Assembly: GCA_977020255.1 (NCBI GenBank)
Contig: CDROCS010002727.1
Span: 496,001 to 560,000, forward strand
DNA length: 64,000 nt
Reading direction: 5' to 3'
Source: Obrimoposthia wandeli
Lineage: Eukaryota
The number at the start of each line of letters is the position of its first letter. The first letter of the stretch is position 1. Positions 4,394-58,639 of the stretch are shown one piece after another. A program made the translations under genes and the position numbers. The notes beneath the pieces are model-generated. The model searched no databases and was not told the DNA's origin. It worked only from the letters and a program-made list of their open reading frames with translations.

Positions 4394-4515
4394 TAAGTCA
4401 GAGGAGATTGTAGATAATTAATGTATGAAATATGTAGAAATACCTAGAAGCAATTGTACAAATAGTAGAAATATATAAAACTCATGTAGAAATTAATCAT
4501 CATCATGTATTTAGA

Positions 4516-4815
4516 ATGGCCGAAGAATGCCCAATATGTTTGGAAGATCTAACCGAACGAAGAACAAGACCCGAAACCTGCAACCATTTACACCACGAGG
4601 AATGTTTATCGACATGGATCAGAACTTATGGACAGTTCGGACATCCAACATACCCTTGTTGCCCTGTATGCAGAAGACAATTCGCAAGATTCATCATGTT
4701 AGAACCCAACCAAGAGGATGTATATGTACAAGTGGTATTCTGTTGGAAGAATTTCGGAGAGTGTTGGTGTTATTACTGTTTGTCAGAACGACAAAATCCG
4801 ACCACTTTTGTGTAA
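4516..4815 (+). CDS. RING-H2 zinc-finger protein 1 (putative E3 ligase)
   Basis: CPIC...CNHLHHEEC...W...CPVC (C3H2C3), plus a C-terminal CWKNFGECWCYYC. Confidence 0.9.
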   Translation: MAEECPICLEDLTERRTRPETCNHLHHEECLSTWIRTYGQFGHPTYPCCPVCRRQFARFIMLEPNQEDVYVQVVFCWKNFGECWCYYCLSERQNPTTFV

Positions 4816-4875
4816 ACATCACACAATCACCAGTCCTCAATCGAGCCCAAATTCAACATCAACCCTCTCACAGTA

Positions 4876-5181
4876 ATGTCTGGAGAATGTTCCATCTGCT
4901 ACGAGAGCATCGTGGACTTCTACACCAAGCCCAACAACTGCGACCACCTTTTCCACATCGAATGCCTCGAGACGTGGATCCCCATCGCCAACAGCAACAA
5001 TCCCCTCGACTTCCCAACCTGCCCGATGTGCAGAGCGACCTTCTCAGTGCACTACGTGTACAACCAGGACAGCCTCCAAGCAGTGGTACCCATAGTACAC
5101 TGCTGGAAAACAATCTGCGATTGCTGGTGCTCGTTCTGCGTAGAGGAGCGACGCACAGGCCAGCCCAACTCCCAACAATAA
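4876..5181 (+). CDS. RING-H2 zinc-finger protein 2
   Basis: CSIC...CDHLFHIECLETW...CPMC, plus a C-terminal CWKTICDCWCSFC. Clear paralogue of RING1. Confidence 0.9.
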   Translation: MSGECSICYESIVDFYTKPNNCDHLFHIECLETWIPIANSNNPLDFPTCPMCRATFSVHYVYNQDSLQAVVPIVHCWKTICDCWCSFCVEERRTGQPNSQQ

Positions 5182-5535
5182 TCGAAGGTAACTTTCTGAC
5201 TTTGAACGTGACATCATGAACTACCCTGTGTATCGCATACCGCGATAAATTAGCTACCATAATTGTAATCATAATTGTATAATCTTGTGGAAACTGTAAA
5301 TTGACCATTACCATTTTTATGTATGTTGTTTAACTGAAATTGTAATTATTATACTGAAATTCTAAAAGACAATTTTTTTTATGCCTAGTGTGAGTGTGTA
5401 AACATGCCTAAAATCGGAACAAAACTCGGTAGGATTAAAAAACTAAGGGTTCGTTTTGAACTAAAATTTTAACCTTATAAATTAACGACGAAAACAGTTG
5501 AACCCCAAGTTGAAAGGAATTATTTTCTTGTGCAG

Positions 5536-6033
5536 ATGAAGTGTTCAGTCTGCCTGGAGAAAATTTGGACGGCATCGGCATCCCCTGTCGGCTGCCGTCA
5601 CAAATTCCACGAGTCGTGCCTCTATACTTGGGCCCGACTTCGACCCGAAGGCCACGTCACATGTCCGTTGTGCCGTGCTCCCTTCGCGGAGTGGACACTA
5701 CAATGTCGCGGACGCCACAAGGGCACTCATTCGCTCACCAGCTGTATTGGTGGCGAACATTGCCAATGCCCCGACTGCATCGCGCGCCGTCGCGACGCGA
5801 AACTCGCCCTCCGAGAGAAATGGCGATCAACCCGTGACTGCCGCTCATGGCAACGTGGTCGCCAAATATGGATCCAGAACCGCGGGGTCCACGGGAGATA
5901 CACGACCCTCTTCCACCCCAATCAGCACCTCAGCATGCCCCAGCAGATGGCCCTGTTCAACGGCAGGACTCCATCATATCCGGACCTACCACTGGAGCAG
6001 GTCTTGCTGTTCTTGAGAGACAGAAACAATTGA
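5536..6033 (+). CDS. RING-H2 zinc-finger protein 3 with a basic C-terminal extension
   Basis: ATG at 5536. CSVC...CRHKFHESCLYTW...CPLC, plus CIGGEHCQCPDC. Confidence 0.88.
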   Translation: MKCSVCLEKIWTASASPVGCRHKFHESCLYTWARLRPEGHVTCPLCRAPFAEWTLQCRGRHKGTHSLTSCIGGEHCQCPDCIARRRDAKLALREKWRSTRDCRSWQRGRQIWIQNRGVHGRYTTLFHPNQHLSMPQQMALFNGRTPSYPDLPLEQVLLFLRDRNN

Positions 6034-18231: not shown

Positions 18232-18758
18232 TCAGGCGTAGTTGCCCTTGTAACGGGATTCACGGCGATGGAGCAGCTGACAGAGCGGCAGAGACTCGTA
18301 TAGAGAGGGACAAATGATGGAAATCTGCTTGTCGAGTTCCGAGTAGATGATGGCCAACTTCACCAGTGTGTCCGGGTGGTAGCTGTAATATATCTTCATC
18401 TGGAGGAAAAAGAGCCGCAGCTGGTGTATGAAGTGCTCGTAGTCATGGTAACGGCCATCATGTACTGCTTGTCCTATTTGTTGCAGAGAGAGCAGTTCGT
18501 GTTTGTACAAGCCTGTGTTCTCGAGAATCGGCCGCAACAAAATCGAGCTGTACCGATGCTCCTGAACCATCCGTGTTAGGTTGCGCATAACTTTCTTTTT
18601 GCTCTCATTCACCGAGCACGAGCCGCCACTGCTGCTGCTGACGGGAGTCACTCCTCCACCCCCAGCTACCGCTGAAGACGACATCGACGTTGGCAGATCT
18701 TCCACCGCAGACACCACCGCCACCGCTGCACACATAAGAGGCTCGTCACACGGGAATG
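18232..18758 (-). CDS. BRD8: BRD8-like gene, last exon (divergent bromodomain)
   Basis: KKVMRNLTRMVQEHRYSSILLRPI...LSLQQI...FIHQLRLFFLQMKIYY resembles the BRD8 bromodomain (WRAAANHRYANVFLQPV...MFQNAVMYN). Acceptor ttctcagatag gives the phase 1 needed by the previous exon. Confidence 0.75.
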
Positions 18759-19069
18759 CTATCTGAGAATCTTATGCTAATAAATGCTGAATGAATTTTA
18801 AATTCGTCGGCCTGTTGAATTTACTATAATTTTGTTTGCTTACAGTAAGCTTATGATAGCGATTATTAAAACATACTTGCTAATGCGGAATATTAAATAT
18901 ATCAATGGTAATTCTCAAAATTAAAATTCTACTACTTGTAATTTGTATGAAGTAGTTGTGCGATTGATTAACTGTATTTTCAATAAATGGAAACAAGGGA
19001 AATATTAATTGCACTGTGTTTTATAGAATCATTCACTAAGTCTGTGTCTGGCTGCTTTGTAGGACTCAC

Positions 19070-19480
19070 AATTGTAGCTCTGCCGTGTGGAGGGTGGCTG
19101 GCTGTCAATACCAGACTTTCTGCCCGCCCCGCGTCGTCTCCGCTTTTGGGGAGGCGGCTTTTGTGTGGCAGCAGTCGCTTGCTCGAGCTCGCTGTTCACG
19201 AAAGTAACAGTGATATCATCAAAGTCATCTCCAGTGAATATGGTCGAGGTGCCACCGACCGAGGGAGAGTGGTCAGCAGCGGTCGCGGTAACCTGCGCAA
19301 ATGTCGAGCTGACGGCTACCGGGAGTCCGTGCTGACTGCTGGCAGCACTGCTGCAGCTCAGACTCGTGGTCACCGTCACAACGTTGTCTAGCTCGCTCGG
19401 CGGCAGGCACTCATCGATCTTTGTGGTAGTTGAAATCAGAAACGGTTCAAGTTTCTGAACTTGTGCTGTGACCTCACAGA
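19070..19480 (-). CDS. BRD8: BRD8-like gene, exon 3 (low complexity, NLS-like KRRRR)
   Basis: GC-rich open frame bounded by acceptor ttcgtcag and donor GTGAGT; phase 1 at both ends. Confidence 0.65.
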
Positions 19481-20937
19481 CTGACGAACAGATATTATCA
19501 TATATAGCATTAACAAAATTTTAATTAAATTCCTTTTCATGTTTACAAAGCAAGTCAGTGATGCTGATTTAAATAAATGTCTCGTTTTATTGTAGCGTCC
19601 GTTATAAATAAAGTTATCCTAGGTTACCGTTTTTTCTTTCAAAATTTGTGGAAAAAATGCATATACTTAATTAATACGCGTGTATTGTTTTTTAAATATG
19701 TCATGGAAATAACATTGAATAAACTATGTACAAACTCAATATCATATTTTAATGTCACTGTTTGTCTATCATTTTATCCAATTATTATTTGAATACCTGT
19801 ACATAAGTATCATGTAGTATTTCATGAATAAAAACCTGACTAGAGCTTTGAGGACAGTAAACGAATTATTAAGTGTAAAATTTTATTTTCACGACTTTCA
19901 ATATAACATAGTAAATATATCTTTTAGATTCATGCAGGTGATTTTTGTTTTATATTTAGATACAATCTTCATTTATTGTGTTAAGACTTATTTTAAATTA
20001 CAAATAAACAATTGATGCCATAATTATTTTTCGTGGAAATTACTAGAAAAGCGACAAAAATAAAAATAATTACTAAAATACGACCGATTTACAAAGAACA
20101 AATATAAATATATATTCAAATTCAAATACAAAAAGTTTACTTTATCATCGTTTTTGTAGATCGAATAGAAACGATTGTGTGCACGGGGAAAGAAAGTATT
20201 CTGACGAGACCATTACTGAATTTTAAATGTAAATAAACAGCATAATCACCCATAAAAAATATGTTAAAAGAGCAATGGTATGATTTTTTAAAAGTATTTT
20301 AATATAATTTTTGTCTTATTTGCAAATCGGTATTATTTAGTAATTATTTTTATTTTGATGCTATTTGATGCTATTACAAAGGACTTAGATGGGCCTGATA
20401 TTGTAAATAAATACGAGTTTATCGACAGAATCCGAGAAAATATTAATAAGATATATGCTGAATCTAAGAGGATAGGTTTGCTCTATGCCAAAGAAAACAC
20501 CTATCAAATGTGCATTTTAAAACTTATTCTAAACTGTGTTATATATATATATATTTAGTGCAATACATTCTAGTTATTCAAAATATTTTTGTAAAGAAAG
20601 TAGGTAGATATGTCCCTCCTGATGTTACAATGAAGCATGAAGTAGAGATTATTTCAACATCTAGTAAATTATGACTTGGTTCTACAAAACTTTATTGAGA
20701 ATCACAGTACAAAAATATGATACTATTTTCATAATCATTAAATAAACATTATAAAATATTGATAAACACACGAACAAATTATATTTTGTTACACTGAGTG
20801 ATAAATTAATTATAAAAATATACATTAACAGCAAAAGTTAGGAATCTGCCGAAACAAACATTCATTAATAAACTATTTGGTTGATAAACAGACAATGGAG
20901 TCCTAAAATTCCAATGATAGATCCCTTCGAGAACGTC

Positions 20938-21475
20938 AGAAGTATAAAGTGTCGGTTCTAAAACAATAGCACACAAAGCCCCCCCCCGAACAAGGCACAA
21001 AGAACAAAGCACATCTGGAATTCGCTTAGTCATACAGATGTGCTTTGTTCCTTGTGCCTTGTTCGGGGGGGGGGGCTTTGTGTGCTATTGTTTGAGAACC
21101 GACACTTTACGTTTTGAAATTTGATTGGTCTTATGCGTCACTTACGATTATGTAGGTTAATATTCTGTAACATTAAGTATATAGTTCAAAAATTTTAATT
21201 CAAAATTAAAAAATTAAATTAAAAAATTAAAAAATTAAATATTGAAATTAAAAAATAAAATATGGAAATTAAAAAATTAAAATTTTAATTCAAAAATGAA
21301 ATATGAAAAAATTAAAATTTTGAAATTAAACACAATTTACCGTCCCAAATTTTTATTTGCAACTATTTAATTTACTTAGTACTGCGACCTCATTCCAGGA
21401 GTTAGACTGCCCCGCATAACCGGACCGCTATCGCAGTTTTTATCATAAGAAACGTTATTGTTTATAGTAGGAGTC
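20938..21475 (+). repeat. Left TIR: 165-bp hairpin (20945-21109), AT-rich tract and 55-bp structured motif
   Basis: Reverse complement of 30439-30970, with a few substitutions and indels. Confidence 0.95.
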
Positions 21476-21530
21476 CATATTTATATAATGAAGAAAGCAA
21501 AGTAACATCGATAAATATATATTAGCACAA

Positions 21531-22310
21531 TTATAAGCGAACTTGTCCATCAGTAATTTTCCAGATTGGTTTATGAAGACCTGTACAGTTGATTTTGTAT
21601 CCCTGTATTGAAATGACGATCATCCACTTGAGTCCAGTTCCCATATTGTCAACATTAAAGTCGTGATCTCGCATGAAAAGATTAGGATCAGCTCGAATTA
21701 TTATATGATTCCCAACTATAATGTTGAGATGCATCGACGCGAAAGTTTTGTTAAGATCATCAATATCTGACGGATTTAATCTATGTATCTTGAAATCGTA
21801 TTTTGACTTATTCAGAGCCACCGGAAACATGAATCCATATATGATTGGAGTCTTCAAAAAATTCATTTGCCAGTTATAAAACATAACCGGCTTGGTGTAC
21901 TTCAAATTGTTAGACTCAAATATTACACCTGATGGTCTATTGTTAATGAACGGTTTCTTATGTTTGTGTGTAGAAACTATATCATCAATAAAGAGATCCT
22001 CATTTGTTGCTTGCTTCTCAAAATTGATAGTCTTGGTTTGTTTGTGGTTGTTGCTTGTCATAGTTTGCTTCTTTGGTTTTGATATTAAAACTACATCATC
22101 ATCATCGGTATCCACATCTGTGTCTGTAAGCCTTGTTGGTGGGGGCTTCTCGAACTTAAGAGATTTAGTTTGTTTAGAGTTCATATCAAAATAATGAATT
22201 CTATACCAAAAGTGGTAGCTTATATATATCATCATACTCGATTCTGATTGGATAATCTTTAGCTTAAAAATTTTATATATAGATTGGGTTATTTCCATTA
22301 ATTCAATCAT
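21531..22310 (-). CDS. Element ORF A, unknown (probable start MNSKQ at 22183); possible ssDNA-binding/OB-fold protein
   Basis: Intact ORF with an acidic/basic N-terminus and a beta-rich C-terminus (KWMIVISIQGYKIN...KPIWKITDGQV). The function is only a guess. Confidence 0.55.
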   Translation of the reverse strand: MIELMEITQSIYKIFKLKIIQSESSMMIYISYHFWYRIHYFDMNSKQTKSLKFEKPPPTRLTDTDVDTDDDDVVLISKPKKQTMTSNNHKQTKTINFEKQATNEDLFIDDIVSTHKHKKPFINNRPSGVIFESNNLKYTKPVMFYNWQMNFLKTPIIYGFMFPVALNKSKYDFKIHRLNPSDIDDLNKTFASMHLNIIVGNHIIIRADPNLFMRDHDFNVDNMGTGLKWMIVISIQGYKINCTGLHKPIWKITDGQVRL

Positions 22311-22800
22311 GAATCTTGCAAATATTAATTATAAAGGTAAAGTTAAAGGAGACATCAGTCACTTACCCTTCAAAACCGGGAAACCATGTCAGTACGTGCA
22401 CAGGTGTAAGGATTATACCCTTATAATCTTCCGTTCAGGTATGTTTTTATGTTAGTTAGTTAGTTATTTATTATTAGGAGCATGCAGGATAATGGGTTGC
22501 AAGAAACATATTACTACAACTATGCTCAAGTGTCCATTTAGAATAAAGATTGATCGTATTCAATCAGTAACGGTTACTGTCGATTTAGGTAAGAAGGTGA
22601 ACCTATACAAGTTGTCTCAAAAGTGTGGAGCTGCATGCATGTTCGAACCTGAGTTGTTTCCTGCTTTGAGGTTTACAAAACACAATCCTCTGTGCGTCAA
22701 CATATTTGCAAGCGGGAAAGTGGTCATACTCGGTCTCAAGGATTTGGATTATCACTTTGATGTGACTTTGATAATAACTGATATTCTACTTTTGATATAA
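22309..22800 (+). CDS. Minimal TATA-binding-protein-like gene, two exons (22309-22438 and 22478-22800)
   Basis: Removing a 39-nt GT..AG intron gives YTLIIFRSGACRIMG (TBP repeat 1, cf. ALIFSSGKMVCTG). Repeat 2 reads FEPELFPAL...VNIFASGKVVILGLK (cf. YEPELFPGL...LIFVSGKVVLTGAK). Confidence 0.88.
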
Positions 22801-22842
22801 ACAATAAATTTTAGTTGAATTTTTATTCTTACATGATTTGAA

Positions 22843-23121
22843 ATGCTAGTTGATTATATACTTCATTATACAACTGTTGATGATGTTTTAGTTAGACGAA
22901 AAGTAGGTTATTCTAGAATGAAAGTTTTACACTGGAAATATAGACCGGAGGCTAAGGAAGCTTTAGGTACAGTTGTTAAAATTATTAAAAATCGACGTAA
23001 ACGTAAAGCAAGTGAAGCAGCACAAACGGTTGAACCCGAAACTAAAAAGCAAGAGGGTAGTGGTAGAAAGAAAGCATCTAGTATAAATAAACGAAGAAAA
23101 CAAGGTACAATATTTGCTTAA
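22843..23121 (+). CDS. Small basic protein, candidate virion core/DNA-condensing protein
   Basis: Arg/Lys-rich 92 aa immediately upstream of MCP, containing QEGSG (GxG, a possible protease site). A syntenic relic lies at ~57510-57780. Confidence 0.5.
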   Translation: MLVDYILHYTTVDDVLVRRKVGYSRMKVLHWKYRPEAKEALGTVVKIIKNRRKRKASEAAQTVEPETKKQEGSGRKKASSINKRRKQGTIFA

Positions 23122-23123
23122 TA

Positions 23124-24386
23124 ATGGCTTGTGGTAAATCTGAATTATGTATTTTTGATCGAGCTTTGCCCCAGGTAGTTGTAAATAATGGTAGCTTTGA
23201 AGATATATATCCAACAAACAATATTACCGGAACAAGAACATCAGAGATTCTGTTTAAAATCCAAGTATCAGATATTGAGTACTTAGATTTGAATGATACC
23301 TTGTTGTTTGTGAAAATAAAAGTAACGAAAACTGATGGTACAGAAATAGCTGTTGCAGATAATGTGGTCCCATCAAATTTCTTGATGCATTCCCTATTTA
23401 AAAGCATAGATATAACAATGAATAATACTGTAGTATAAACCCATCCTCAATATGCACAAAAAGCTATGATTGAAACCATACTAAACTATAGCACAGACAC
23501 TAAAGACACTTGTTTGTCGAGTATAGGTTATGATGATGATGAAGATAAGCGTAAAGGTTGGGCTGCTCGCTCAAAAGAAATTGACTTGTGTGGGACTCTT
23601 CGATCTGATATTTTTGAGCAACCAAAGTATCTCTTACCTGGTGTGTCTATCATGGTAAGACTTGTACCTAATAAATCTATGTTTAGTCTGAACTACGGAA
23701 CGACTCTATCGCGAATCATATTTATTGAAGCTAAACTTAAAGTCAGAAGAGTCAGAGTTGAGAATGATGTTTTAATGGGACAAAATATTGGTCTTGAATC
23801 TAGGAATGCTGTATATCCCTATACTCACAGAAAGCTAATGTATCATACCTTAGCCATCGGTTCTACGAGTTTTTACAAGGATCAAGTGTTTGATGATGAA
23901 CAATTGCCTAAATTTGTGTTGATTACGTTGCAAGCAGGTGAAAAACTTATCGGTAATGGTGCTACAGACTCTTCAACATTCGATCATTCTAATGTTAACA
24001 CTATCAGTCTTGCTAGAAACAGTGATTTTAACGAATCTTACAGTACAAACTTGAAACAGGTGAAACCACCTTTGCATATGTCCAATCTATCATTAGAAAT
24101 ATGGGTAATTTGGATAAGAATATAAACAATGGCGTATCACTGGATGAATTCAAAACCAAATATCCATTTTCCACGTATCACTGGATGAATTCAAAACCAA
24201 ATATCCATTTTTCACGTTTGTTTAGCCCCTGACTTTGATATCACGCAAAACCAATTAGCAAAACAGGGTAATTTACGCCTTGACATCAAGTTTCACAAGT
24301 CATTAACAGTCCCAACAAACGTACTGATTTACGGGATTTTTGATTCTGAGTTTGAAATAACTAAAGGCCGACGTGTGATTGTATGA
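23124..24386 (+). pseudogene. Maverick major capsid protein (double jelly roll), disrupted
   Basis: CGKSELCIF...EILFKI...EYLDLNDTLLFVKIKV...HSLFKSIDIT...IETILNY...DIFEQPKYLLPGV...KLKVRRV...LPKFVLI...FTFVLAPD...GNLRLDIKF...VLIYGIFD. In-frame TAA at 23436, frameshift near 24052, 41-bp duplication at 24133-24216. Confidence 0.9.
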
Positions 24387-24767
24387 AGTGAGTTTTTTTA
24401 ATTTATGTTTTAAGATTTTATTAACAACAAGTAATGTTCAGGTGAATGAAATAACTAGTTTGCTGCTCGGACCGCGATTTAAGGGTGTATACCCGTTGGA
24501 AAAAATCCCAACATTAACGCCTAGATGATATATTGTCAATACACTGACCTCAAATCTTCCTGGAGAACACTGGATTGCGTTATTCGTGAGACAGAATTCT
24601 GTACATGTGTATGACCCTCTTGGAGTATACTATCCGGGAAAACTTATCAAGCATGTAGAGTCTCAAGGAAAACATGTATATTACAACAAAATTCGTTCTC
24701 AAAACCCACTGACTACTAATTGCGGTCCACTATGTATCTTATGGTTGTATGATCAAACTATATAAAT
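24383..24767 (+). pseudogene. Adenain-like cysteine maturation protease, spliced (exon 1 24383-24387, intron 24388-24431)
   Basis: MNNVQVNE...FKGVYP...IVNT...PGEHWIAL...YDPLG...QNPLTTNCGPLC gives the catalytic H, D, Q and C. One in-frame TGA. The ATG overlaps the MCP stop codon. Confidence 0.88.
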
Positions 24768-25182
24768 GTGATTGGTAATAAAATTTGTATTCAAAAAATT
24801 TGTTTTATAAATAGCTTCAACTGTCCCATCGAAATTTTAAAAAAAATTTGAGTTTTGATAAATTAAGAGAAAATTAATGGTGTGAATTATTTTTAAAAAT
24901 TCAAAGTCTAACGGTGTGAATATCGGTTATGAAAAAATTCATAATTGATTGACCGTAATTAACCTTTATGATCACGTGTGTAGCAACTAGGGAATAAAGA
25001 GTCTTTATTACACATTCCTAGTTTGTAAGTACACACGTGATGTGTGACGTGTGCATCTAGGGCAACAACTACACTTGTGATTGTGATTGTGAACCATATA
25101 TAAACAATCAGTGTAGATTCATTTATCAATTTAATCACAATTTCCAAAAAGTAAGTATTTTGATTTTATTATTTTTATTTAG

Positions 25183-28100
25183 ATGTCAAAAATTATTGTT
25201 GCTTTCAACAGCAATAAAAGATGGACAATGAAGCCTGTAGTGGCTGATGATGATGTCGACTTGGATGCGACACCTGTTAAGAAAGGTAATTTCAATTATT
25301 ATTATTTTATTCTTTAATTTAATTTAGCAATGCGGAGTGTCACACCACCAATATCAATTGCGCCATGGCTATCAACAAAATATGATGCTCCTACTAAGAA
25401 AAGAAGCCGAAAGCAGTCAATTTCTGATGTTGAAAAGAAGAAAATGTCAAAAGTTTTTTTATCTTCTGAGAAATCTGCTCAGTCTTTACTTCCTTCTTCT
25501 TCTTCATCTTCTCATTCTCATGTTTTTCCTCCATATGACAATCATTTAAATAAACCTTTTGGGGATATAAGGGATATAAACTCTAATTCTCCCGACTGCG
25601 ATAGCTGCCCGGTAACGCGGGGCAGTCTAACTCCTGGAATGGGGTCGCAGAACAAGTTAATTAAATCAAGAGGTTACCCCTTACTTTTTAAACCAGGGAC
25701 ACCTGTTAATTCGATAGAAAATTTCGACGTAAATGAGATATACTCGGGTTTTGAAATTATCCCGTTTAAAAAATATTTTAATCAGTTAAAGAAAGTTAAA
25801 AATCAAAATATTGATTTAAGTAAACTGAAAACAGAAGGTAGGAAAGGTAAACGATTTCGTCAGAAGCTGCGTAGATTGAGAAAACTACCAGCAGATATAA
25901 CAATATTTGCAAATTTATTAGGGTCTTGCAAACCCATTAATATTAGTCCAAGTCTGAAAATTACAGATCTGGCAAATAAATTATATGAAGTCTTTGGGAC
26001 TGATCAAATTTATGTTAACCGTAATGGCATGCCCTTTGAAAGGGAAGCTATTATCGGTGATGTTTTACATGAGGGGGCTATTATCCATGTATACCCTAAA
26101 CTTCGTGGAGGAAGTAACTTATGTACATTGTACAAGTATTGCACAAACGTTAATCATGGAATAGAATGTCATAGTGTAATGCTTAAATATTATAAATTTA
26201 AAAGCGGTTTTATTTGTCCACATTGTGATGTGTTATATTGTATTGACTATCAAACATTTTATAATGATCATAAGGATCATCTGACGTATTTTAAGTCTAA
26301 AAAGTTAGCATACAAACGTAAAGTAATGAGAGTACCAACAATAGACAACAATAAAATAGCAAAAACTAATAATTTTAATGAAGAGTTTGATGTGGTAGAC
26401 TCGTGGGAACCGGATAGTGTTGTAGAAATTGATACTTATCCTGAAGTTGTAGAAATTATTGAGCCTTTAACGTCTAATGAAATCTTAAATAATAAAAATA
26501 TTGATGAACTTATAGATCAGGACGAGTTTATAACAGAAAATGATTTTTTCGACTCACTCCTAACTATTACGGATGATGACTTTGATAATATTGTTACAAT
26601 TAATTCAGATAATACATTAACTTTTAACAATCAAATAGGAGGTGCAATTCAATCAAACCTTGTTTTTGATGTTAGTGGATTAAACATGCTTAAACTATAC
26701 ATTAACGATACTATGCTAACTGAACTTACTAGCAGTATAGATGTGTTTAGTCCCTGTAAAATACAGTTTGGTGTTGAAACCGAATTTGTCAATAACGAGG
26801 GTCAACATAAAACATGGCATGTAAGCTTTAAAGCAAATATTTTTGAACAAGATTTTATCACTACAAGAACAGTTGAGCTCAACAATAAAATTGAAATTTA
26901 TAAGGATATGAGTTCTGGATGGACAGTATTTAAAATTATGTTGGAATCCTTTAAATTTACTGCACTTTCAAACGTAGCAGGATCATCATTTATAAAAACC
27001 CCGGTTGCGCTTGCTAAAACACTATCTATAGTGAACGTAAATAATACTGATGATCAGTGTTTTAAATACGCTGTTCTCAGTATCCTACACTATAAAGATT
27101 TCAATCGAAACAGACAAACAGTTGAAAACTATAATGATTATTTAAATGAACTTATATGCGAGCCTGGTCCTATGAGGATAGACTGCATCAAGGCGTTTGA
27201 AAAACTCAATAATATAGCGATAACAGTATTCTCCTATAAACCTACAAAGGTAGAGCCTCATAGTAGTCATCTAGTGTTTAAAAACCCAGATGTTAATGTT
27301 ATTTATAGAACGAGTCTTAAGCAGTGCGAAAAAGTAGTAAACTTGTTGCTGTTGGAACAGAGCGGTAATTATCACTATACTGGAATTACAAATCTGAAGA
27401 CTTTTAAATACTCAAAAATATAATGTGCGTCTCTTTTGGTGTGAGAAATGTCTTTTTGGATTTCGAACCACGATTTCATATGACAAACACAGGGCACATT
27501 GTAATATTAATACAGATTTAACAACCTTGTTTACAATGCCTAAAGAGATCAAGTGTCAGTTTTCTGACTGGTCTAAATCTATTGCGCCACCATTTGTTGT
27601 ATACGCCGACTTTGAGTCAATACTCGAGCCACATAATACTTTCAAACACATTCATAAACCAATATCTATAGGGATGATTTTGAAAAACAACACTAATAAT
27701 TCAATACAATATTTCAGTTATTACGTTCTGCAGTGTGCTAAAAACTTTGTAGATAAATTAACTGAGTTGATAAATGGTGAAGTGGCAGATTTTTGGGTAA
27801 ATAGTATTAATGTTCCTATGGTTTTTACTAATAATGACATGTTGAACTTTAGAGATTGCACTAATTGCTATCTTTGTAAAAAATTAAACGATCGTATGGT
27901 TAGAGATCATGATCATATCACGGGTAAATACTTGGGTGCGGCATGCAACAAATGCAATTTAAGTCGCAAGTTTGCAAAGAGACCGGTTTTACCTGTGGTG
28001 TTTCATAACCTTATGGGTTATGACATACATCATATTTTAAAATATGCCGACTTGAAAGGTAAATTCTTTTCAATTATCCCTAAATCAAGTGAAAAGTTCA

Positions 28101-29910
28101 TGTCCCTCCGTATAGAGATGAAGAGGGGGACATTGAAATTCATTGATTCATACCTTTTTACAACGTCAAGTCTTGAATCCTTAGTTTCATACTTGCCAAG
28201 TTGTCCTTATACTACACAATACCTAAAACCTAATATTGCAACAAGTAAGGCGGTATTTCCATATGAATATATTAGTGGTGTTGATAGGCTTATGGAGACG
28301 CAGTTACCCGCTAAATCTGAGTTTCCTTCTCGAGTCACTGATCAACAATATAATGAAGCCCTAATGATGTGGACTGTATTAGGGTGTAATACTATTAAAG
28401 ACTACATGCTTGAGTATATGAAACTTGACGTGTATCTCTTATGTGATGTTTTTGAGACCTTTAGACAGAAAGTAAGGGATGATGATAATCTAGAGGCGCT
28501 CAATTTCTTTAGTATCCCTGGTCTCAGTTGGGCTAGCGCATTAAAAACATTAGAGTATGATGTGGATTTATTGCATGATCCCGAAATGTATAACATGTTT
28601 GAGGCAGGGATACGGGGAGGGATGACTTTCATCAATAAACATTACGTTAAAACAACAGATGAAACATTCCTCCTATACATTGACATAAATAACCTATATG
28701 GCTGGGCCTTGAGTCAACCGTTACCACATACAGATTTTACATGGGTATATGACGGTTTTGAAGCGATAATTGAGCTTATAACTGAGAGGGATATTCACGG
28801 TAATATGCAGGACTTAAGTCTTAAAGAACATGGATACTTGTTGGAAATTGATTTACACATATACCCATCAGTATTCATGATAAACTTGATGACTTACCGA
28901 TTGCGCCTAATAGAGAAATCCCTCCCGGCTCAAAAGCTTCAAAGCTGTTGATGACCCATGAGGATAAAAATAATTACATCATACACTCACAACTACTACA
29001 ATTTTACTTGTTTCTGGGTGCAGAAATTAAACAAGTGCATAGAGCAATAAAGTTTCATCAAGCTCCTATATTTAAAACATATATTGATATCAATAGCCGG
29101 AAACGGGCAGAGGGTACTACTACATTTGATAAAGAGTTTTATAAACTCAAAAATAATTCAATATATGGTAAGATAGTGGAAAATCTTAAAAAACGTAAAG
29201 ATATCCGTCTTACCAAGAATGATCGTCAGTTTACTAAACTTGTTTCAAGCCCTTGGTTTAAGAAGCATACCCAAATAACCGACAATCTCAATCTTTTATT
29301 TATGCAAAAGAAAGAAATTTGTCTGGATCGACCATCATATATTGGTCAAGCTGTGTTGGACTTATCTAAACTACGTATGTACCAACTACAGTATAGTGAT
29401 CTTGACCGGTATCATAAGCAATATCATTGTGATATCAACATAGTTGCAATGGATACAGACTCGTTTTTCTTAGAGTGTAAGCATATAGATAAAGATGTCC
29501 TCTTAAAACAAATGATTAAAGATCAGATGTTAGATACGAGTAATTACCCGATCACACATGAGTTATTTAACGATTCTCATCGAAATGTGATTGGAAAGTT
29601 TAAAGATGAAAGCAAGGGGACAGTGCTTTATGATGAATGGGTATTTCTGAAACCTAAATGCTACTCATTGAAAACGAGTATGAGGGCTAAGGGTATCTCC
29701 CTTAAACAAACCGAAATCAGACATGAGCATTACATAAAGTGTTATGTTGATGATGAAATTATAACTGCCGGTCAGACACGTATTTTATCTCGTAATCATC
29801 AATTATTTACAATGTATAATGATAAAATTGCGTTAAGGTGTTATGACGATAAAAGGGTTAGGCTTGAGAAAAACAAATCCGTCGCATATGGACACTATAG
29901 TCTAAGATAG
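25183..29910 (+). pseudogene. polB: Protein-primed family B DNA polymerase polyprotein with an N-terminal ubiquitin-like domain; two frameshifts
   Basis: ATG 25183 joins ORF 25330 through a 42-nt intron (25286-25327). Motifs: SSGW...GSSFIKTP...DQCFKY, DHDHITG...AACNKC, FHNL.GYD, FIDS, FPYEY, YMKLDV, GIRGG, YIDINNLYG, KLKNNSIYGK, MDTDS, GKFKDE, KPKCY, RAKG, DDKR. Frameshifts near 27410 and 28868. Confidence 0.93.
25897..26112 (+). other. Ubiquitin-like domain (72 aa) ending in LRGG, inside the pPolB ORF
   Basis: ITIFANLLGSCKPINISPSLKITDLANKL...GAIIHVYPKLRGG follows the length and hydrophobic pattern of ubiquitin (MQIFVK...TLHLVLRLRGG). Confidence 0.75.
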
Positions 29911-30109
29911 GTGTATATAAAATCTGGGGTAACCTCTTGAAAGTATTAACTAATATCCTTCTTATTTTTAATGTGATAGTATGTATCTTTTTAAATGCAA
30001 TAGTATGTATATATTTTTAATGCTATAGTATGTATATATTTTTATTGATGTTTATTTTTAATACATTGTATGTATCATAACCATGTCTTGACTTCCTACT
30101 AGCTACTCA

Positions 30110-30421
30110 TTGGATAATTTAATCAAATTCTCTATAAATATATACACATTTCAATCAATCAATTTCTCATTATTTCAAATGACTACTTTTAAAGAAAAAT
30201 TGCAAGCTCTCTATGATAACCTGAGCCCTACCTTGATGGCCCAGTATACTGAAAAGTACTTTAACTTATTTGTTGCACCAGAACTTTTTGTCTCAAGGAT
30301 TGAAGAACTTTATATGTATCACCTGTTTAATGGAGACTTTAAACCTAAAGTTGCAACAATCATTAAAATAGAAGAAGAAGAAGAAAGCATGGATTGTGAC
30401 AATGAATATAATTATGTATAA
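30110..30421 (+). CDS. Small element ORF of unknown function (probable start MTTFKE at 30179)
   Basis: Intact ORF ending just before the right TIR; acidic tail. Confidence 0.45.
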   Translation: MDNLIKFSINIYTFQSINFSLFQMTTFKEKLQALYDNLSPTLMAQYTEKYFNLFVAPELFVSRIEELYMYHLFNGDFKPKVATIIKIEEEEESMDCDNEYNYV

Positions 30422-30438
30422 ACATAGACTTTTTACTA

Positions 30439-30970
30439 GACTCCTACTATAAACAATAACGTTTCTTATGATAAAAACTGCGATAGCTGTCCGGTTATGC
30501 GGGGCAGTCTAACTCCTGGAATGAGGTCGCAGTACTAAGTAAATTAAATAGTTGCAAATAAAAATTTGGGACGGTCAATTGTGTTTAATTTCAAAATTTT
30601 AATTTACATATTTCATTTTTGAATTAAAATTTTAATTTTTTAATTTCCATATTTAATTTTTTTAATTTCCATATTTAATTTTTTAATTTTGAATTAAAAT
30701 TTTTAATTTTTAAAATTTTTGAACTATATACTTAATGTTACAGAATATTAACCTACATAATCGTAAGTGATGCATAAGACCAATCAAATTTCAAAACGTA
30801 AAGTGTCGGTTCTAAAACAAGGCACACAAAGCCCCCCCCGAACAAGGCACAAGGAACAAAGCACATCTGTATGACTAAGCGAATTCCAGATGTGCTTTGT
30901 TCCTTGTGCCTTGTTCGGGGGGGGGGGGGCTTTGTGTGCTATTGTTTTAGAACCGACACTTTACACTTCT
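30439..30970 (-). repeat. Right TIR with hairpin at 30798-30964
   Basis: Reverse complement of the left TIR; hairpin loop tatgactaagcgaattc. Confidence 0.95.
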
Positions 30971-31331
30971 AACGTCACCTTTTTTTACTTCATTTAATAC
31001 GTACAAGTCAAAAATTGAAACGAAAATTTTCACTAAACGACCTCCTCAATATATCCCAGTACGAATGATATTTGCTCTCGACTAACCCTCTTTATCCTAA
31101 ATCAATCTCCCAAACAATGAAATTATTTCCACAAAAAAAGTCGTAATTAGTCAAATTTAGGTCAAAATCATTGAACAATTTTATTTTTTAAATAATTTGG
31201 ACCTATTTGAGAACACTTAAAAGGTTTCAACTATAATATATATCTTGGATCCTAAAACGCATCTAGATGGACTGTGTATATTCTATAATTGGTGTACAAT
31301 AAACGGAGTAATCAGAGCAGACAAAACTCAC

Positions 31332-31828
31332 TATTGCTTGTGTTCCGTTCATCGTCCATCCAGGCCTGGAACCGCAGATCCAACTGAGACTTTTGTTGCT
31401 GCTGCCCACAAATGTCGAGCTCACCAAGTCTCCAACCAGCAATCACACCGTTATCAGAACCAGCCCCCAACTCCTCATCCTCTGACGCCGTCAACCTCCT
31501 ACCCACATCACGCCACTGGCCAAGACCCACCGCACACAGTGCTTCCTCATACGACAAAATCTTCACCGGACCATTACCAGCCACCACCATGTCCTGACTC
31601 TCCTCCATAGACTCGTCCTCGCCGCCGCCTCCACAACCCCCAATGTCACAAGAGTCGCCTAACTCCTGCATGTGATTTGTCATCTCTCCGGCATCTTCCA
31701 GCGTCTCTGTGGCGTCACTGTCACTGTCATCTTCATTGGGTTGACTAGAGCCTCCTCCGAGGCGCTCAAGGATCTCATCATCAAATACACCGCTGTCTCC
31801 CGCCATCACCACCGTACCATCGCTTAAC
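31332..31828 (-). CDS. BRD8: BRD8-like gene, exon 2 (acidic, low complexity)
   Basis: Acceptor ttttttgtctag (phase 2, matching exon 1) and donor GTGAGT (phase 1, matching exon 3). GC-rich open frame. Confidence 0.65.
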
Positions 31829-35299: not shown

Positions 35300-38200
35300 G
35301 GACAATTAACAGATGAAGTTGCACCAAATCATGGTATTGAATTTGTATGCCCAGCTCCAAAAGATTATCATTATAAATTAAATAATAGATAGATCTCAGG
35401 TAAAACCAAAGGTTTTGTAACTAAATATTTAGAAACATATATATTCACAATGGATAAAAAAGTAATATTAGTTTTGAACAATTCACATATTCCATATTAT
35501 CAAGGTCAAAATGAATCTTATGAATTGATAAAAATACAAAATGTAGATTGACAGGAACTGCCAATAATAATTTTAATAGAATAAAAACAATTGAACAAAC
35601 CAAAATGTATGATTTTAATTTCAATAAGAGTCAAGTAAAATATTAAGAAAATGAAAATGTGATAACTTATCTATTTAGACATTGAAAAAAAAATTATAAT
35701 ATGCACAAATTTCCTTATTTAGATTATCTTATAACTAATAATCTTGTAATTGATAATCTTTTAAATTGTAGTTATTGCAATATTGTGACAATATTAATAT
35801 TGGAACCAAAATATTTTGTTCCAGACAGTGTGAAGTAGCTTGTAAGCTAATTGAATTAAGGAAGGTTAAAAAATGCACCCAATTCAAAAAAACATTTAAA
35901 ATATTATTATAATAATGAATCATAAGAATGTCATAAAAATATTCATATGGCAATTTAATAAACAATTTAAATAATTATCAATTGTTGAAAAACTTGTTAC
36001 TTATAGAAATACTAGTAAATTACACTATTTAGCAAGAAAGAAAAATATAGAAAAATGTGATAGTATGACTTTTACCGAATTAATTGAAGCACTCATGTTT
36101 CTCGCTAAAGAATAAGATTTCCCTATTTTAATTTCAATAAGAGACAAGTAAAATATTTTAAAAATGTAAATGTAATAACTTATCTATTTTGAAATTTGAC
36201 TCCTTCTATATTATTGGATTCTTGTTTTTTAATAGCATATTTCATATTTTTCTCAATCCATATTATTTTATTATCAATTGTGACGGATTTTGATTTTTTA
36301 AAATTTACTAATTCTCTCAAATTTTCTATCGTTGGATTTGTCATTTTCTTCTTTTTTTCTTTAAGAAATAAAATCTTTAAAAATGACATTTTTTCCAATT
36401 TGGACTAAAGATAAAAGTACTTTTAATAATAGTATTTTTTCATCAAATTTTGAACTTTTAATTATTGGATCATCAGGTTGTGGTAAAAATGTTCTCTTGA
36501 TGAAAATGTTGTTTACAAAAGATTTTCTTGATTATAACAATCTTAACTCAACAACTATAAATCAAAAAGAATTAACAAATTGTAAAAGAAGGATTTGAAA
36601 ATGGATTGACAAAAAAGCTATAATTAATATATTTGAAAATTAAGATAGTTTTACTAATGAATTAAGTACAACAAGTGATATTTCATAATATTAGAAAATC
36701 TGATATGAATAATAAAGAAGAATATGTGAATGAATCAGAAAAAAGTAATGTTTTCTTTTCTAATAAATCTGATAGTGATTTTCTTCCTAAGGATAAAAAA
36801 ATCATATTATATTTGTTGATGTTGTAAATATTAAAAATCAAGAAATACAGAAGTCTTACGTCACTAGACAATATAATATTTGTAATGTAATTTATATTTC
36901 TCAAAATTATTATAGTCTTGATAAAAACACAGTAAGAAATAATTCTAATTGTTGTGTATTTTTTTAACTTGTTAAGAGAGATAAGGATATGGGATATAGT
37001 GATTTATTTTCAAATGTTGAACCTGATAAATTTATGTTTGATCAATTTACTGCAAATCATTGGAAGAAAAATATAGTTATATTTTCTTGGATAGAGAAGG
37101 AAGACATTATGGAAGATTTGTTCTGAAGAAATTCATTTATAGGCTTAATTTATCATTTGTAGTCTAAATCTATCATTTGAGCTCTAAATTAATCTTTTAC
37201 GGCTCACATCCCTAGAAAAGAGACCAAATCATGATTTTTAAATATTTCTCTAAAAAATGATGACTATTGAAAATATGAATTATTTATCTAATTATTTATC
37301 TAATTTTTTAGATAAATATAAAAATGTTCAAAATTTTGATACTAATCTGATGCAGAAATATGCTAAAATGGAAACGCTTGATAGATTTACTCAGGTTAAA
37401 CTTGTGTATCCTCATTTGACTCAAGAACAGATAGCTAAGAAAATTGGTTCTTCTGTTACTACATTGAAAAGAATTAGAGCAGATCTAAATACTAAGAATT
37501 TTTATCATTATGATGTTAGACTGAAAAAATCAAATGAAGTTCATAATCCTGAAGATCAATTAAAGTATCAATTTTGTCCAAAGATTTCTAAGATTTCAAA
37601 GATTCGTTTGGCTATAGAACTCATTTTAGAAGTTGTAAGTATTTTAAAAATATGAAAGAAATTACTTAAAAGACAATCACTAAATCAACAACAAGCTCAG
37701 CAAGTTCCTATGAATACAATAGGAGGAACTGGATTGGATTTTGCTACTTCATTAAAATCAAAAAATAATAAGAAGAAAAATAAAAATAATGGTAGAATCC
37801 TTGAGAATGATGAGGATAATGATGATAATATATATAATATGATAAAATAAAATTCTAAACTTAAATTTTATCTTATTCTTAAATTTTATCTTTTAAAATG
37901 GAAGATAAACTTGCGAAAGGAGATGAAGAAACTAAAATTATTATTAAAGAAAGAGTTAGAATTTTCGATGAAAGGAATTTATGTACTCAATCATCTATGG
38001 GTAAAGAATTAATTATTAATAGTGAATTAATTAAAAAGTCAATGGAGTTGCCAGGTGATACAATTTATGATTTTGAACAATGAATCAATCGAGACAGTTG
38101 ACAAATTATTTTTTTATAATAATATAAAATAATAAATATTGGAATAGATATCGAAATAAATATTAAAGTAATTACACATATATTTTTTCGTACTAATTCT

Positions 38201-39806: not shown

Positions 39807-41097
39807 ACATACAATCTCCTGTCGGAATTCTACTTCATCCACGCCACCCCGACACTCTTCAATGCTGGCACTAGTGAGGCTCAAATGTCAAGCTGTTTTC
39901 TGCTTACTATTGAGGAAGATAGTATTGAAGGAATCTTCAACACTTTGAAGAGCTGTGCTCTAATATCAAAAAACGCAGGAGGTATCGGTCTAAATATTCA
40001 CTGCATTCGCCCAAATGGTTCTGCCATCGAGGGTACAAACGGTACATCAAATGGTCTCATTCCAATGCTTCAGGTGGGTTTGATTTGAAAAAAAGCATTC
40101 AATATTGTATGTGACCCACTAATAAAAGTATTGATGACTAACATTTTGAGCTATATCAAGATGTTGATAATTTATTGAAAGCATTCGAAATAATAGTAGA
40201 CAATTAAATAAAATATACATTCAACTAGTAAATATACACATTAAATAAATATTACATCGTCAATTAAAGAACTGTTTCTAATGTTAAAGTTAATTTTAAT
40301 TTTACTTATAATTGTTTAATGGAACCTATATATCTCTCCAGATTTGGAGTCCGCAATAGTCTGTTGGTGGCACCAATGCCCACAGCCAGTACGGCACAGA
40401 TTCTCGGCAACAATGAATGTTTCAAGCCCATCACCAGCAATATCTATCTGCGCCGCGTCTCGAGCGGCGAATTCGTGGTCACCAACAAATATATTATAGC
40501 CGACCTCGTCAAACTTGAAGTCTGGGACGAGGATCTTAAGAACGCCATTATTGCAAATCAGGGCTCTGTACAAGTTCGTCATCATTTTGTGTTTTCTAAC
40601 TTGGTGCTAAATTTATGCTAGAGTTTAAAGATTATCGTTTCTTTTTTAAAGTTTTATCAACCAATAACATTTTTAATATTTAAAGTATCATTTTATTTGG
40701 TAACTAAACATTAAAGAAACTTCGTCCCAGGTTGTCTTCCAACTGCTCATTACCCTAAAGACGCTGCTATAATATTTGACTCGGGGAATTCTATTTGGCA
40801 TGTATCTTTTAAATATTTTAATCAAGTTATACTATTTGCATATCAAATATTTGTTCGATTTCAATAATTATCAAAATATCGCGTAAACATTGTTGTATGA
40901 AATTACAGAACATCAATGGTCTTCCGGAAGAGCTTAAGCAGCTTTACAAGACGGTGTGGAAGATGGACCAGTCAACTCTGATCCGTATGGCAGCAGACCA
41001 GGCGCCCTTTGTGGATCAGAGCCAGAGTCTGAATCTGTTTGTTGCGAAGCCTGGCTACCAGGCACTGACTACACTACACATGTCTGCCTGGAAATTG
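39807..41097 (+). pseudogene. RRM1: Ribonucleotide reductase large subunit gene fragment: three intron-bounded exons (39807-40073, 40342-40573, 40909-41097)
   Basis: [10 protein letters not shown]...[28 protein letters not shown]; [22 protein letters not shown]; LKQLYKTVW...DQSQSLN. About 300 aa is missing between exons 1 and 2, whose phases are incompatible. No N- or C-terminal exons were found. Confidence 0.9.
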
Positions 41098-57026: not shown

Positions 57027-58400
57027 ATGAAACTCTCAAATATCAATTATAAAGCACATACTACTCAATATATTGGAAATCTAACATTTAGTACTACAAA
57101 ACCAAGTCAATATATAGAAAAACATAAATATTATACTTTAGTTATTTTCAAATCAAATATTAATTTGAGATATTAATAGGAAGTTGTCGATTAATGAGGT
57201 ATAAGAAACCAGATACAAACTAGAATTTACAATATGGTATACAAATAGAGAGAAAATAATCAGTAACAATGGATATTGGAAAGAAAATCAATTTACATTA
57301 TTTATCAATGAAATTAGGATCTGGTTGTATATTCAAACCGGAATTATTTGCACTCAGATTAAATAAATATAATCCATTATGTGTTAACGTATTCTCAAGT
57401 GGAAAGATTATAATAGTTGGACTTAAAGATTTGGATTATTATTATGATGTTAATTGTTTCAAATATATTGCTTTTGTTATAAGCGTATAATGTATAATCA
57501 AAATTTGAAAATGATTAATAATAATGATGAATTAGTTGAGAACACAGTTGATGAAAAAATGTCCGGAACTATATAGGGCACTTGGTATTTTTCAGAATTA
57601 TAAAATTCAATCGAGGTAATATTCGTTCAATTGTCAGAAGTTGAGTAAATCAAAATATCAGATACAAGAAAGAAGTTCCGAAAAAAGAAATCTGCATCTA
57701 AGAGACCATCACAAGCGGAAAGTAAGCAAGAAGGCAGTGATAGTATAAATAAAAGATGGTAAAAAGATACAATAATTGAGTAAAATGACAACCGCATGTG
57801 GTAAATCCGAATTGTGTTTGTTTGATAGACCAGCCCCTCAATTTATAGTTGAGAATGGATGTTTTGAAGACATTTATCCGATTAATACAATGAACGATAA
57901 CAAATATATCTGAAATTGAATTTAAAATTGAATTTAAAATTTCAGGTTCTGATGTAGGATATCTTGATTTGAGTGATACAATGTAACATGTAAAAAATAA
58001 AGTTGTTAAAAAGGACGGTACACCACTAAATGAAGCTGATAATATTACACCAGTTAATTGTTTAATAATATTACACCAGTCATGTTTCATAGACTGTTTA
58101 TAAACTTGGAAGTTTCATTGAATTCTGAGAAAATAGAAGGTGGGAATGATATGTAGGCTGTAAAATCAATGATAGAAACCATTCTTAATTATGGTACCGA
58201 TACTAAAGAAATATTTCTTTCATGTATTGGATATGACTCTGATCCAGATGAATGTAAAAAGTGGATTTCTCGATCAACTGAGTTTTAAATGTGTGGTTCA
58301 AAGTTCGATCTGATTTTTTTGAGCAACCTAAATATATTTTGCTTGGTATTTATGTGAGATTGGAATTTGTATTTAATAATCCTCAAGTAAGCCTTTACAT
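57027..58400 (+). pseudogene. Relic B of the TBP-Maverick family: TBP-like gene, small basic ORF and MCP N-terminal half
   Basis: MKLSNINYK...YTLVIFKS; KPELFAL...CVNVFSSGKIIIVGLKDLDY; MTTACGKSELCLFDRPAPQ...FEDIYP at 57785. Same gene order as the intact element. Confidence 0.85.
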
Positions 58401-58639
58401 CTGAAAATTGACAGAATAATTTATGTATAACTAAAATTTGTCTATTTTAATGCATAAATATAAGCGTAGAAAGTTTTACTGTAATTTTTTGACATGGTTT
58501 CGTCAACAAGAAAAATATCTAAGTTATAGTACTGCGTTTCGCTAAATAGTTTAAAATGTAACATGATAATATAAATTTTAGACAATATCATTTAAAATCC
58601 TATATATTTTGTGTTAAATAAAATATAAATTAGACATAC

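Follow-up and report, generated by a model that had tools for sequence, protein, structure and literature searches.

Viral homologues of the TATA-binding protein (TBP) have been described in herpesviruses and giant viruses. In beta- and gammaherpesviruses (ORF24 of KSHV (the herpesvirus associated with Kaposi's sarcoma), BcRF1 of Epstein-Barr virus, UL87 of human cytomegalovirus) a protein with the TBP fold works with host RNA polymerase II (Pol II) at a minimal, non-canonical late box, early genes retaining canonical TATA boxes; going by the available text of PMC12529657, KSHV ORF24 has 752 amino acids (aa), reads its late box (TATTWAA) through a polar TBP face, binds Pol II directly, requires five other viral factors, and has four Phe and no acidic residues for TFIIB. 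In the TBPs of Nucleocytoviricota and mirusviruses the regulatory surface of the N-lobe has diverged; these proteins are mostly accompanied by a viral TFIIB, and C.L3.2 is conserved in just ~40% of cases (available text of PMC7221094). The locus described here lies in a 64,000-nt stretch of the Obrimoposthia wandeli genome (GCA_977020255.1, contig CDROCS010002727.1, positions 496,001-560,000, + strand; hereafter the window), in which an integrated Polinton (Maverick) carries a gene for a compact TBP-like protein. The element family resembles animal Polintons (adintoviruses; PMC8502044, PMC8097293) in its AG/CT terminal inverted repeats (TIRs), 6-bp target-site duplication (TSD), protein-primed DNA polymerase B, rve integrase with chromodomain, packaging ATPase, and IAP and single-stranded DNA-binding (SSB)-like genes, to which a putative major capsid protein (MCP), penton-like protein and protease can be added. 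Its TBP resembles the herpesvirus proteins in being a viral protein of TBP fold, with predicted use of host Pol II, a non-canonical late box and a polar DNA face that includes N-x-N.

We estimate at roughly two in three the probability that this compact TBP is the element's own late-promoter factor, which would drive the late genes together with host TFIIB and Pol II; the proposal draws on sequence comparison and structure prediction. The exon 2 portion of the product matches Pfam TBP (PF00352, E 2.6e-13, above the cut-off), all 35 matches in a PDB sequence search are TBP or TBP fusions, and the HH probability to TBP is 99.2. An AlphaFold2 model of the read-through protein (P0001, with X replacing the stop codon; 73-sequence alignment) has a pLDDT of 92.1, low only across the intron codons, and predicts the two-repeat antiparallel beta-sheet saddle of the TBP superfamily. 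Foldseek returns 44 matches to it at E<=0.001, with TBP chains throughout the matches listed, and VIA against human TBP gives Z 13.5 (150 residues aligned, root-mean-square deviation 2.7 A), the next unrelated fold standing at Z 6.8. A structural search of BFVD yields 19 matches at E<=0.001, the structural matches to BcRF1 and UL87 are weak (E 0.005-0.014), and the protein falls far below the NCBIfam archaeal TBP cut-offs. Cellular TBP and TRF (PF00352; human 1cdw/7egb, yeast 1ytb) share with it the saddle, an EPELFP stirrup with the TFIIB-contacting Glu, three Phe and an N-lobe Asn; unlike them, it has ~150 aa rather than a ~180-aa core, no predicted N-lobe helices and no N-lobe stirrup Phe, and is ~22% identical. 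A first-pass annotation of the window had proposed a ~150-aa two-repeat TBP core without N-terminal extension, of which the likeness to TBP and the missing extension stand, but the gene is not a single open reading frame (ORF), its first repeat is strongly shortened and the two repeats are asymmetric.

Residue statistics refer to 120 listed homologues out of the 146 proteins that match at E<=0.001. The TFIIB-contact glutamates are near-invariant (E113 in 116/120, with Asp in the other 4; E115 in 119/120), and of the four intercalating Phe three are kept: F41 in 115/115, F117 in 119/120 and F133 in 120/120. The stirrup Phe of the first repeat has no counterpart, and a Pro lies nearby in 112 of 113. 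Positions 7, 86, 88 and 131 are N, S, T/S and N in the compact proteins (N7 in 108/111, S86 in 116/120, N131 in 120/120), as against V, N, V and L in all 107 scored of 115 cellular TBPs examined; judging from the alignment and the residue comparison in the ORF24 paper, these four substituted positions would face DNA. According to the available text of PMC7221094, two C-lobe Glu touch TFIIB and an N-lobe basic cluster binds TFIIA, TAF1, Brf1 and Mot1. It is the segment of this cluster, helix H2 of the N-lobe, that is shortened: N-lobe spacings are mostly 33-40 and 17-22 residues versus 46 and 32 in cellular TBP, at each of its helices the first repeat falls 10-15 residues short, no N-lobe helix is predicted, and the only modelled helices of at least 4 residues span 99-109 and 149-162. 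The structural check that the annotation had proposed thus returns a TBP fold with both TFIIB glutamates and three of the four Phe in place.

The second line of evidence is a box upstream of the late genes. We examined gene starts in 80 loci (75 metagenomic, 5 from this genome), dropping those without a nearby ATG or sufficient upstream DNA and dereplicating the remainder. The motif TATAAACA occurs 25-100 nt upstream of the ATPase in 12/21, the mu-like gene in 17/19, the core gene in 5/7 and MCP in 10/12, versus 0/54 for TBP and 1/12 for the SSB-like gene; on the opposite strand it is absent before late genes, and shuffle means are below 0.3. Widened post hoc to ATAAAC[AG], the motif precedes 57 of 59 packaging and capsid genes (ATPase 20/21, mu-like 19/19, core 6/7, MCP 12/12) versus 2 of 54 TBP genes, and an unbiased ranking of 6-mers puts ATAAAC first (57/59 versus 4/54). 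Distances from box to ATG are mostly 31-48 nt. Within the window's own family, the box lies at fixed per-gene distances of 31, 35, 36, 41, 42 and 46-47 nt in 36-39 copies per gene and never before TBP (0/39); at the MCP distance the family motif is present in 38/38 copies, and one sister copy has 8 TATAAACAAT matches before gene starts where 0.15 are expected (0/200 shuffles). The reading frame in which the box falls varies, and it also occurs between genes, so that codon usage does not account for it. The canonical TATAWAWR, by contrast, stands before TBP in 24 of the 54 loci left after dereplication (shuffles: mean 5.0, maximum 10) and before MCP in 0 of 12. A consensus TATA box has A or T at position 7, and positions 7 and 8 are those between which the second Phe pair inserts (PMC1935006); the late box, unlike this consensus, always has C at position 7. 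Variants of the box that start with C are concentrated in the L094/L096 group. In this genome, the upstream stretch of 9 of 10 MCP-anchored loci has a TBP match, and searches with two divergent TBPs gave box-bearing families only.

The upstream regions of TBP genes have a motif of their own: TTGTTT, which resembles a reversed late box, is present in 20 of 54 TBP regions (among them loci L039, L041, L042, L051, L064, L070, L071, L078, L079, L087 and L091) versus 2 of 59 late ones, and might possibly reflect autoregulation or the promoter of a divergent gene. A further motif near TBP promoters, TTGTTTTA, was dropped, as it is not positioned before late genes.

Host TBP or a forkhead factor might instead read the ATAAACA box, with the element TBP competing for host TFIIB or for TATA promoters, an alternative that we consider doubtful. 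ATAAACA fits the forkhead consensus, RYAAAYA. The retained TFIIB-contact glutamates would also permit squelching, and host TBP can bind a C-containing box with Hoogsteen pairs (title of PDB 1qn3, C(-25) variant; available text of PMC4402545). Against such a host reader stand the strict strand and distance bias of the box, the scarcity of GTAAACA (2/59 late regions), which would be the stronger forkhead site, and the lack of reverse ATAAACA (0/59). The non-consensus C is kept at every one of 57 sites, which come from elements with MCPs of only 26-63% identity, the TBP gene itself uses a canonical box, and the DNA-facing residues of the compact TBP have changed in a fixed way.

The forkhead resemblance and the Hoogsteen binding count against our own proposal, as do several other observations. 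The integrase (2/7) and protease (0/5) largely lack TATAAACA within 100 nt, 30 of the 54 TBP promoters are without a canonical TATA box, and the 59 late regions are not independent, several coming from one element. When viral contigs were scanned with MCP and ATPase, none proved to be a closely related animal Polinton that lacks TBP. A scan with the polymerase yielded six distant contigs, the only TBP-less comparison, in which ATAAACA lies 24-55 nt upstream in 1 of 53 ORF starts (by eye). Finally, four sequencing runs (one sample, one study) keep the intron of the TBP gene and have no splice joint; these reads behave as DNA and so provide no evidence either way.

If the compact TBP is the late-promoter factor, the following scheme can be envisaged. 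Host TBP and Pol II would transcribe the TBP and SSB-like genes from their divergent canonical promoter, and the host spliceosome is predicted to remove the mini-intron from the TBP transcript. The compact TBP would bind the (T/C)ATAAACA box before packaging and capsid genes, preferring TATAAACA over TATAAAAG; with its polar DNA face (N7, S86, T88, N131) and without the stirrup Phe, it may have come to favour a box with C at position 7 over TATAWAWR. The repeat that lacks this Phe would be the one facing the 3' half of the box, in which the unusual C lies. Host TFIIB would dock on the C-lobe stirrup (EPELF, both Glu kept) and Pol II would be recruited, and loss of the basic N-lobe helix could free the protein from TFIIA, TAF1, Brf1 and Mot1/BTAF1 so that it works outside TFIID. 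The outcome would be a herpesvirus-like early-to-late switch run by one ~150-aa protein, and by analogy the elements have a non-canonical TATA-like box, albeit a different one, before genes presumed to be late and a canonical one before a gene presumed to be early. Unlike herpesvirus vTBPs, the compact TBP is small, keeps the TFIIB Glu, is paired with ATAAACA and has no detected partner complex; it consists of the TBP core only, with no N-terminal Pol II-binding domain, and most homologues have no extra domain (the search did not extend to longer or fused forms). A wider claim, which we hold a little less firmly but still regard as probable, is that this Polinton clade runs the smallest known virus-specific Pol II initiation switch, having shed the TFIIA, TAF1 and Mot1 surfaces, kept the host TFIIB dock and re-tuned the saddle to ATAAACA, a box that would stand before every packaging and capsid gene. 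The annotation had supposed that the element redirects host transcription initiation or competes with it; redirection fits as a steering of host Pol II to the element's late promoters, and competition finds no support here.

The compact TBP might also work with another adaptor or polymerase: it could reach Pol III by way of Brf, rely on a helper giant virus for transcription machinery, or have a so far unrecognised partner encoded by the element, such as ORF88. Brf1/2 use the same C-lobe glutamate (available text of PMC7221094), virophage late promoters are reported to mimic those of their giant virus, and the element has small genes of no assigned function. However, the helix used by Brf1 is predicted to be lost, and nuclear Pol II is indicated by introns of host style and by poly(A)-like signals. 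No TFIIB homologue turned up in element copies or in ORF scans of their relatives, although a very divergent one could be missed; the whole genome has 12 TFIIB-family matches, those read being host TFIIB- or Brf-like exons, versus at least 1,011 TBP junctions, and with over a thousand elements so few matches mean that the elements encode no detectable TFIIB. On this balance we judge another adaptor to be quite improbable. The same features separate the compact TBPs from those of giant viruses: E113 and E115 are 97-99% conserved, and neither a viral TFIIB nor a viral RNA polymerase was seen.

The listed homologues are mostly 144-165 aa long and 35-62% identical, none of the 120 has a viral name, and a profile search finds 57 50%-clusters at E<=1e-30. 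Among 80 metagenome loci of compact TBPs, 34 have another gene of the window element, and 20 of the 80 have the SSB-like gene on the same contig. The longest four look like complete Polintons, in which ATPase, integrase, MCP and polymerase are all present. In a quick maximum-likelihood tree (76 rows; 46/73 branches open) all 46 compact TBPs fall on one side of a long branch (99% SH-aLRT), separate from eukaryotic, archaeal-like and giant-virus-contig TBPs, all three of the last lying outside the clade, and the host TBP groups with animal TBPs. This suggests a wide Polinton clade of compact TBPs, distinct from both host and viral TBPs in the comparison that the annotation had called for, and its idea of a Maverick encoding its own stripped-down TBP is borne out by the fold and by the ties of the clade to Polinton genes. 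A recently captured, decaying host TBP fragment or a passenger without a role would accord with the neutral decay of copies after insertion; every element gene decays alike after insertion, homologues keep the key residues, and the position of the host TBP apart from the compact clade in this quick tree speaks against recent capture from it, so that we give this explanation next to no weight. The host has two head-to-head TBP genes of canonical type (L178/L179) and at least three divergent TBP-like paralogues (L180, L181, L182). Related TBP-bearing Polintons also carry a ubiquitin-conjugating enzyme, a KilA-N protein and a PLA2-like gene (L061:225-719, L096:7136-7993, L096:9080-9478).

It is important to note that a ~150-aa protein is made only if a 39-nt segment is spliced out. 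Codon 49 (22453-55) is a stop, which rules out one intact ORF, and it lies inside a segment that starts GTATGT and ends TTAG. In the 30 top genomic copies of the gene, the segment is 35-43 nt long with GT-AG ends in all 30, exon 2 is 323 nt in 30/30 and exon 1 is 130 nt in 28/30; in a second sample (the first 40, in contig order, of 1,011 exact 23-mer matches at the intron donor) it is 35-48 nt long, has GT-AG ends in 39/40 and is not a multiple of 3 in 12/40. None of the 115 homologues that cover the site has a residue there. GT-AG ends, free length and a colinearity with homologues that is restored on removal are thus all found, and because the stop lies in a GT-AG segment of variable length that homologues lack, we regard the segment as probably a spliceosomal intron and the product as probably 150 aa. 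The host TBP gene has a GT-AG intron of ~46 nt, close in size to that of the element, and none at the element's intron site. Other Polinton families of this genome, and one metagenome contig, have this codon split as well, by GT-AG segments of 35-40 nt with unrelated sequence. The loci concerned are L166/L168/L170/L176, L173/L175/L204/L206/L210/L218/L222, L237 and L054, from at least four families of this genome and the one metagenome contig; exon-2 proteins of the intron-bearing families are 48-58% identical, and other families of this genome (L236, L238, L239, L240) lack the intron. About 14 of 150 cluster representatives start at a Met directly after the intron site, a hint that the mini-intron is widespread.

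The coordinates of the element and of the surrounding features are collected in Table 1.

Table 1. Features of the window, in window coordinates.
Feature	Position	Strand	Remarks
TBP-like gene	ATG 22309 to TAA 22800	+	sequence, homology
Predicted exon 1 of TBP-like gene	22309..22438	+	130 nt
Predicted spliceosomal mini-intron	22439..22477	+	39 nt, GT-AG, phase 1, in Gly following IFRS
Predicted exon 2 of TBP-like gene	22478..22800	+	323 nt; EPELF and VNIF motifs; Pfam PF00352
Predicted divergent early promoter	22219..22290		TATATATA boxes for TBP (22274-22281, +) and SSB-like gene (-), ATTGG (CCAAT) between
TATAAACAAT box over TBP stop	22796..22805	+	47 nt before IAP-like gene; in 38/40 copies
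MCP promoter box position	23082..23089	+	42 nt before MCP start; one base off family motif
TATAAACAAT box within MCP	24121..24130	+	~300 nt before protease
TATAAACAAT box before polymerase region	25099-25108	+	
Polinton/Maverick provirus copy	20938..30970	+	10,033 bp, internally deleted; ends 5'-AG...CT-3'
Target-site duplication	20932..20937 (left), 30971-30976 (right)		6 bp
Terminal inverted repeats	20938..21475 (left), ~30437-30970 (right)		~540 bp
Predicted OB-fold SSB-like gene, divergent	21531..22184	-	T7 gp2.5/Enc34/ASFV CP312R-like; weak match
Junction of private deletion	22944..22945		~4.9 kb; loose read ends at 22945
Major capsid protein gene	23124..24386	+	broken here: stop 23436-38, frameshifts
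Adenain-like maturation protease	24430..24762	+	stop 24526-28 here; Pfam Peptidase_C5 E 0.0047, below cut-off
Protein-primed DNA polymerase B	25330..29910	+	three frames here; Pfam DNA_pol_B_2 PF03175 E 6e-20
Relic B: decayed TBP-like gene	57027..57490	+	different and older Polinton family
Predicted last host exon, bromodomain-like	18232..18762	-	ESM Atlas 0.90 to bromodomain clusters, splice signals
Predicted upstream host exon	31332..31828	-	single copy in genome; joining to bromodomain exon inferred
One further predicted host exon	about 19030-19450	-	

The window copy has the AG...CT repeats and 6-bp TSD expected of a Polinton, as do most of its sister copies: of 20 examined for their ends, both ends were found in 16, of which 14 have exact 6-bp TSDs and 14 measure 15.0-15.3 kb. 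The family is ~15.1 kb at full length, with at least 1,011 copies by exact 23-mer matches, and the 2,313 occurrences of a terminal 22-mer in the assembly likewise imply over a thousand, in which haplotype duplicates may be included. The usual order is TIR, SSB-like (minus strand), TBP, IAP-like, ORF88, ATPase, small ORF, mu-like, integrase, penton-like, core, MCP, protease, polymerase, TIR. A protein-primed polymerase is present, though broken in the window copy, and integrase and packaging ATPase (Pfam rve, Pox_A32) are found in 38 of the 40 sampled copies, the window copy having lost both by deletion. Assignment of the MCP, minor capsid protein and protease is by position, likeness to relatives and weak Pfam matches (Capsid_N E 0.015, and Peptidase_C5 at the value in Table 1). 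The SSB-like product has an AlphaFold2 pLDDT of 91.9 and a best Foldseek match to 7yeq (E 0.036, probability 0.96), with nothing at E<=0.001. An IAP-like gene with BIR and RING domains (Pfam) lies directly 3' of TBP (L127:6984-7880; window remnant 22843-22944), and the N-terminal polymerase ORF has, by eye, a ubiquitin-like stretch ending LRGG (25860-26120).

Each TIR holds a near-perfect hairpin of ~165 nt with G/C runs (20945-21109 and 30798-30964, 7 nt inside the end), the fold of which has a z of -19.5 and is equalled by none of 200 shuffles; the 17-nt loops at the two ends are reverse complements. These hairpins bear on another conceivable role, in which the protein would no longer serve transcription but replication, by binding to single strands or hairpins of the terminal repeats. 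The protein lacks one intercalating Phe, the gene sits beside a predicted SSB, and a Phe-deficient Giardia TBP binds single-stranded DNA and poly(G) (available text of PMC12209930), but that TBP lacks three Phe, whereas the compact TBPs hold three of four, and both TFIIB glutamates, near-invariant. A replication role would also leave the promoter split unexplained, and we think it very improbable. Each TIR also has an outward-pointing TATAAACAAT box (21457-21466, -, and 30448-30457, +), which, if active, could yield end-directed transcripts or read-out into host DNA.

The window copy is a defective, neutrally decaying provirus. Its private deletion removed most of IAP together with ORF88, the packaging ATPase, the mu-like gene, integrase, the penton-like gene and the start of the core gene; the junction is found in 0 of 40 copies, the MCP stop in 0 of 36 and the protease stop in 0 of 29. 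The close neighbourhood of TBP and MCP therefore arose by chance in this copy: 38 of 40 copies have the ATPase between the two, and where a metagenome locus has an MCP match (11 of 80) TBP is 4.6-7 kb upstream or after the protease, which rules out adjacency as a conserved linkage. The presence of integrase and ATPase in most copies likewise rules out a naturally integrase-less, hairpin-ended 10-kb virus. Open frames were counted for the TBP exons (32/40), SSB (34/38), ATPase (28/38), protease (27/35), integrase (16/38), penton-like gene (17/38) and MCP (16/38). The annotation had read significance into a TBP gene left intact among broken neighbours; this is an effect of gene length, the pooled decay rate of the other genes predicting 29.7 open of 40 (P 0.26), and the private TBP changes (33 non-synonymous, 11 synonymous; 21% synonymous expected) are about neutral, so that selective preservation is ruled out. 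The second TBP that it had placed upstream of MCP in relic B is indeed present, but decayed: exon 1 is open, no GT stands at the intron site, and exon 2 has a frameshift and stops. The MCP/protease region of relic B is 65-72% identical in nucleotides to sampled loci. Its TBP is followed by two separate decayed MCP copies (57785-60871), and TBP stands immediately before core/MCP in L218 too, so that this block has undergone internal deletion more than once.

Viral TBPs that have a late box of their own are known in kind, and our survey suggests that the minimal form in Polintons has not been described. Starrett et al. 2021 (PMC8502044) has, in its available parts, "TBP" as one label in the Fig. 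5 legend on MELD viruses, and none in the supplement text, slide files aside; to that extent TBP is already catalogued for this clade. A term search found neither TBP nor TATA in PMC8097293, PMC11161782, PMC11131425 and PMC10748475, and the literature searched (in part as partial text, with subscription papers and Repbase outside its scope) contained no Polinton TBP clade or shared late box. Polinton core genes are described, in the texts available, as intronless with introns in cargo, and in a nematode Maverick preprint cargo genes are the only ones with introns. By what means Polintons regulate their genes is an open question, as is whether they form virions, and a late promoter with a cognate factor is what a temporal cascade needs. 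The pairing of TBP and box makes the question directly testable through transcripts that start ~30 nt after ATAAACA; if such a switch exists, these integrated elements would have a true early-to-late viral programme. In the protein, nature would offer a minimal TBP that is predicted to have an orthogonal DNA specificity, to be blind to TBP regulators and to remain compatible with host TFIIB, a combination that differs from herpesvirus vTBPs and from the TBP-TFIIB pairs of giant viruses. The late box may also help to annotate gene starts in these elements, and with more than 1,000 copies here, the protein, if expressed at all, could act at ATAAACA sites of the host.

The annotation had placed the insertion in an intron of a chromatin-regulator gene. 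The element does lie between predicted minus-strand exons, one of them bromodomain-like, which makes the placement plausible but does not prove it; against PDB the bromodomain-like exon has a best match of only E 0.58, to an RSC1 chain. As the family has more than 1,000 insertions, the intron location looks incidental. Elsewhere in the window, an HTH-like ORF (37257-37655), a fragment of a ribonucleotide reductase large subunit (40319-40621) and an rve integrase fragment (55270-55587) belong to other elements or host genes. At 456-6033 lies an AT-skewed block of ORFs without introns, which encode a dual-specificity phosphatase of 602 aa, a membrane-like protein of 599 aa and two RING-finger proteins; it is possibly the cargo of another mobile element.

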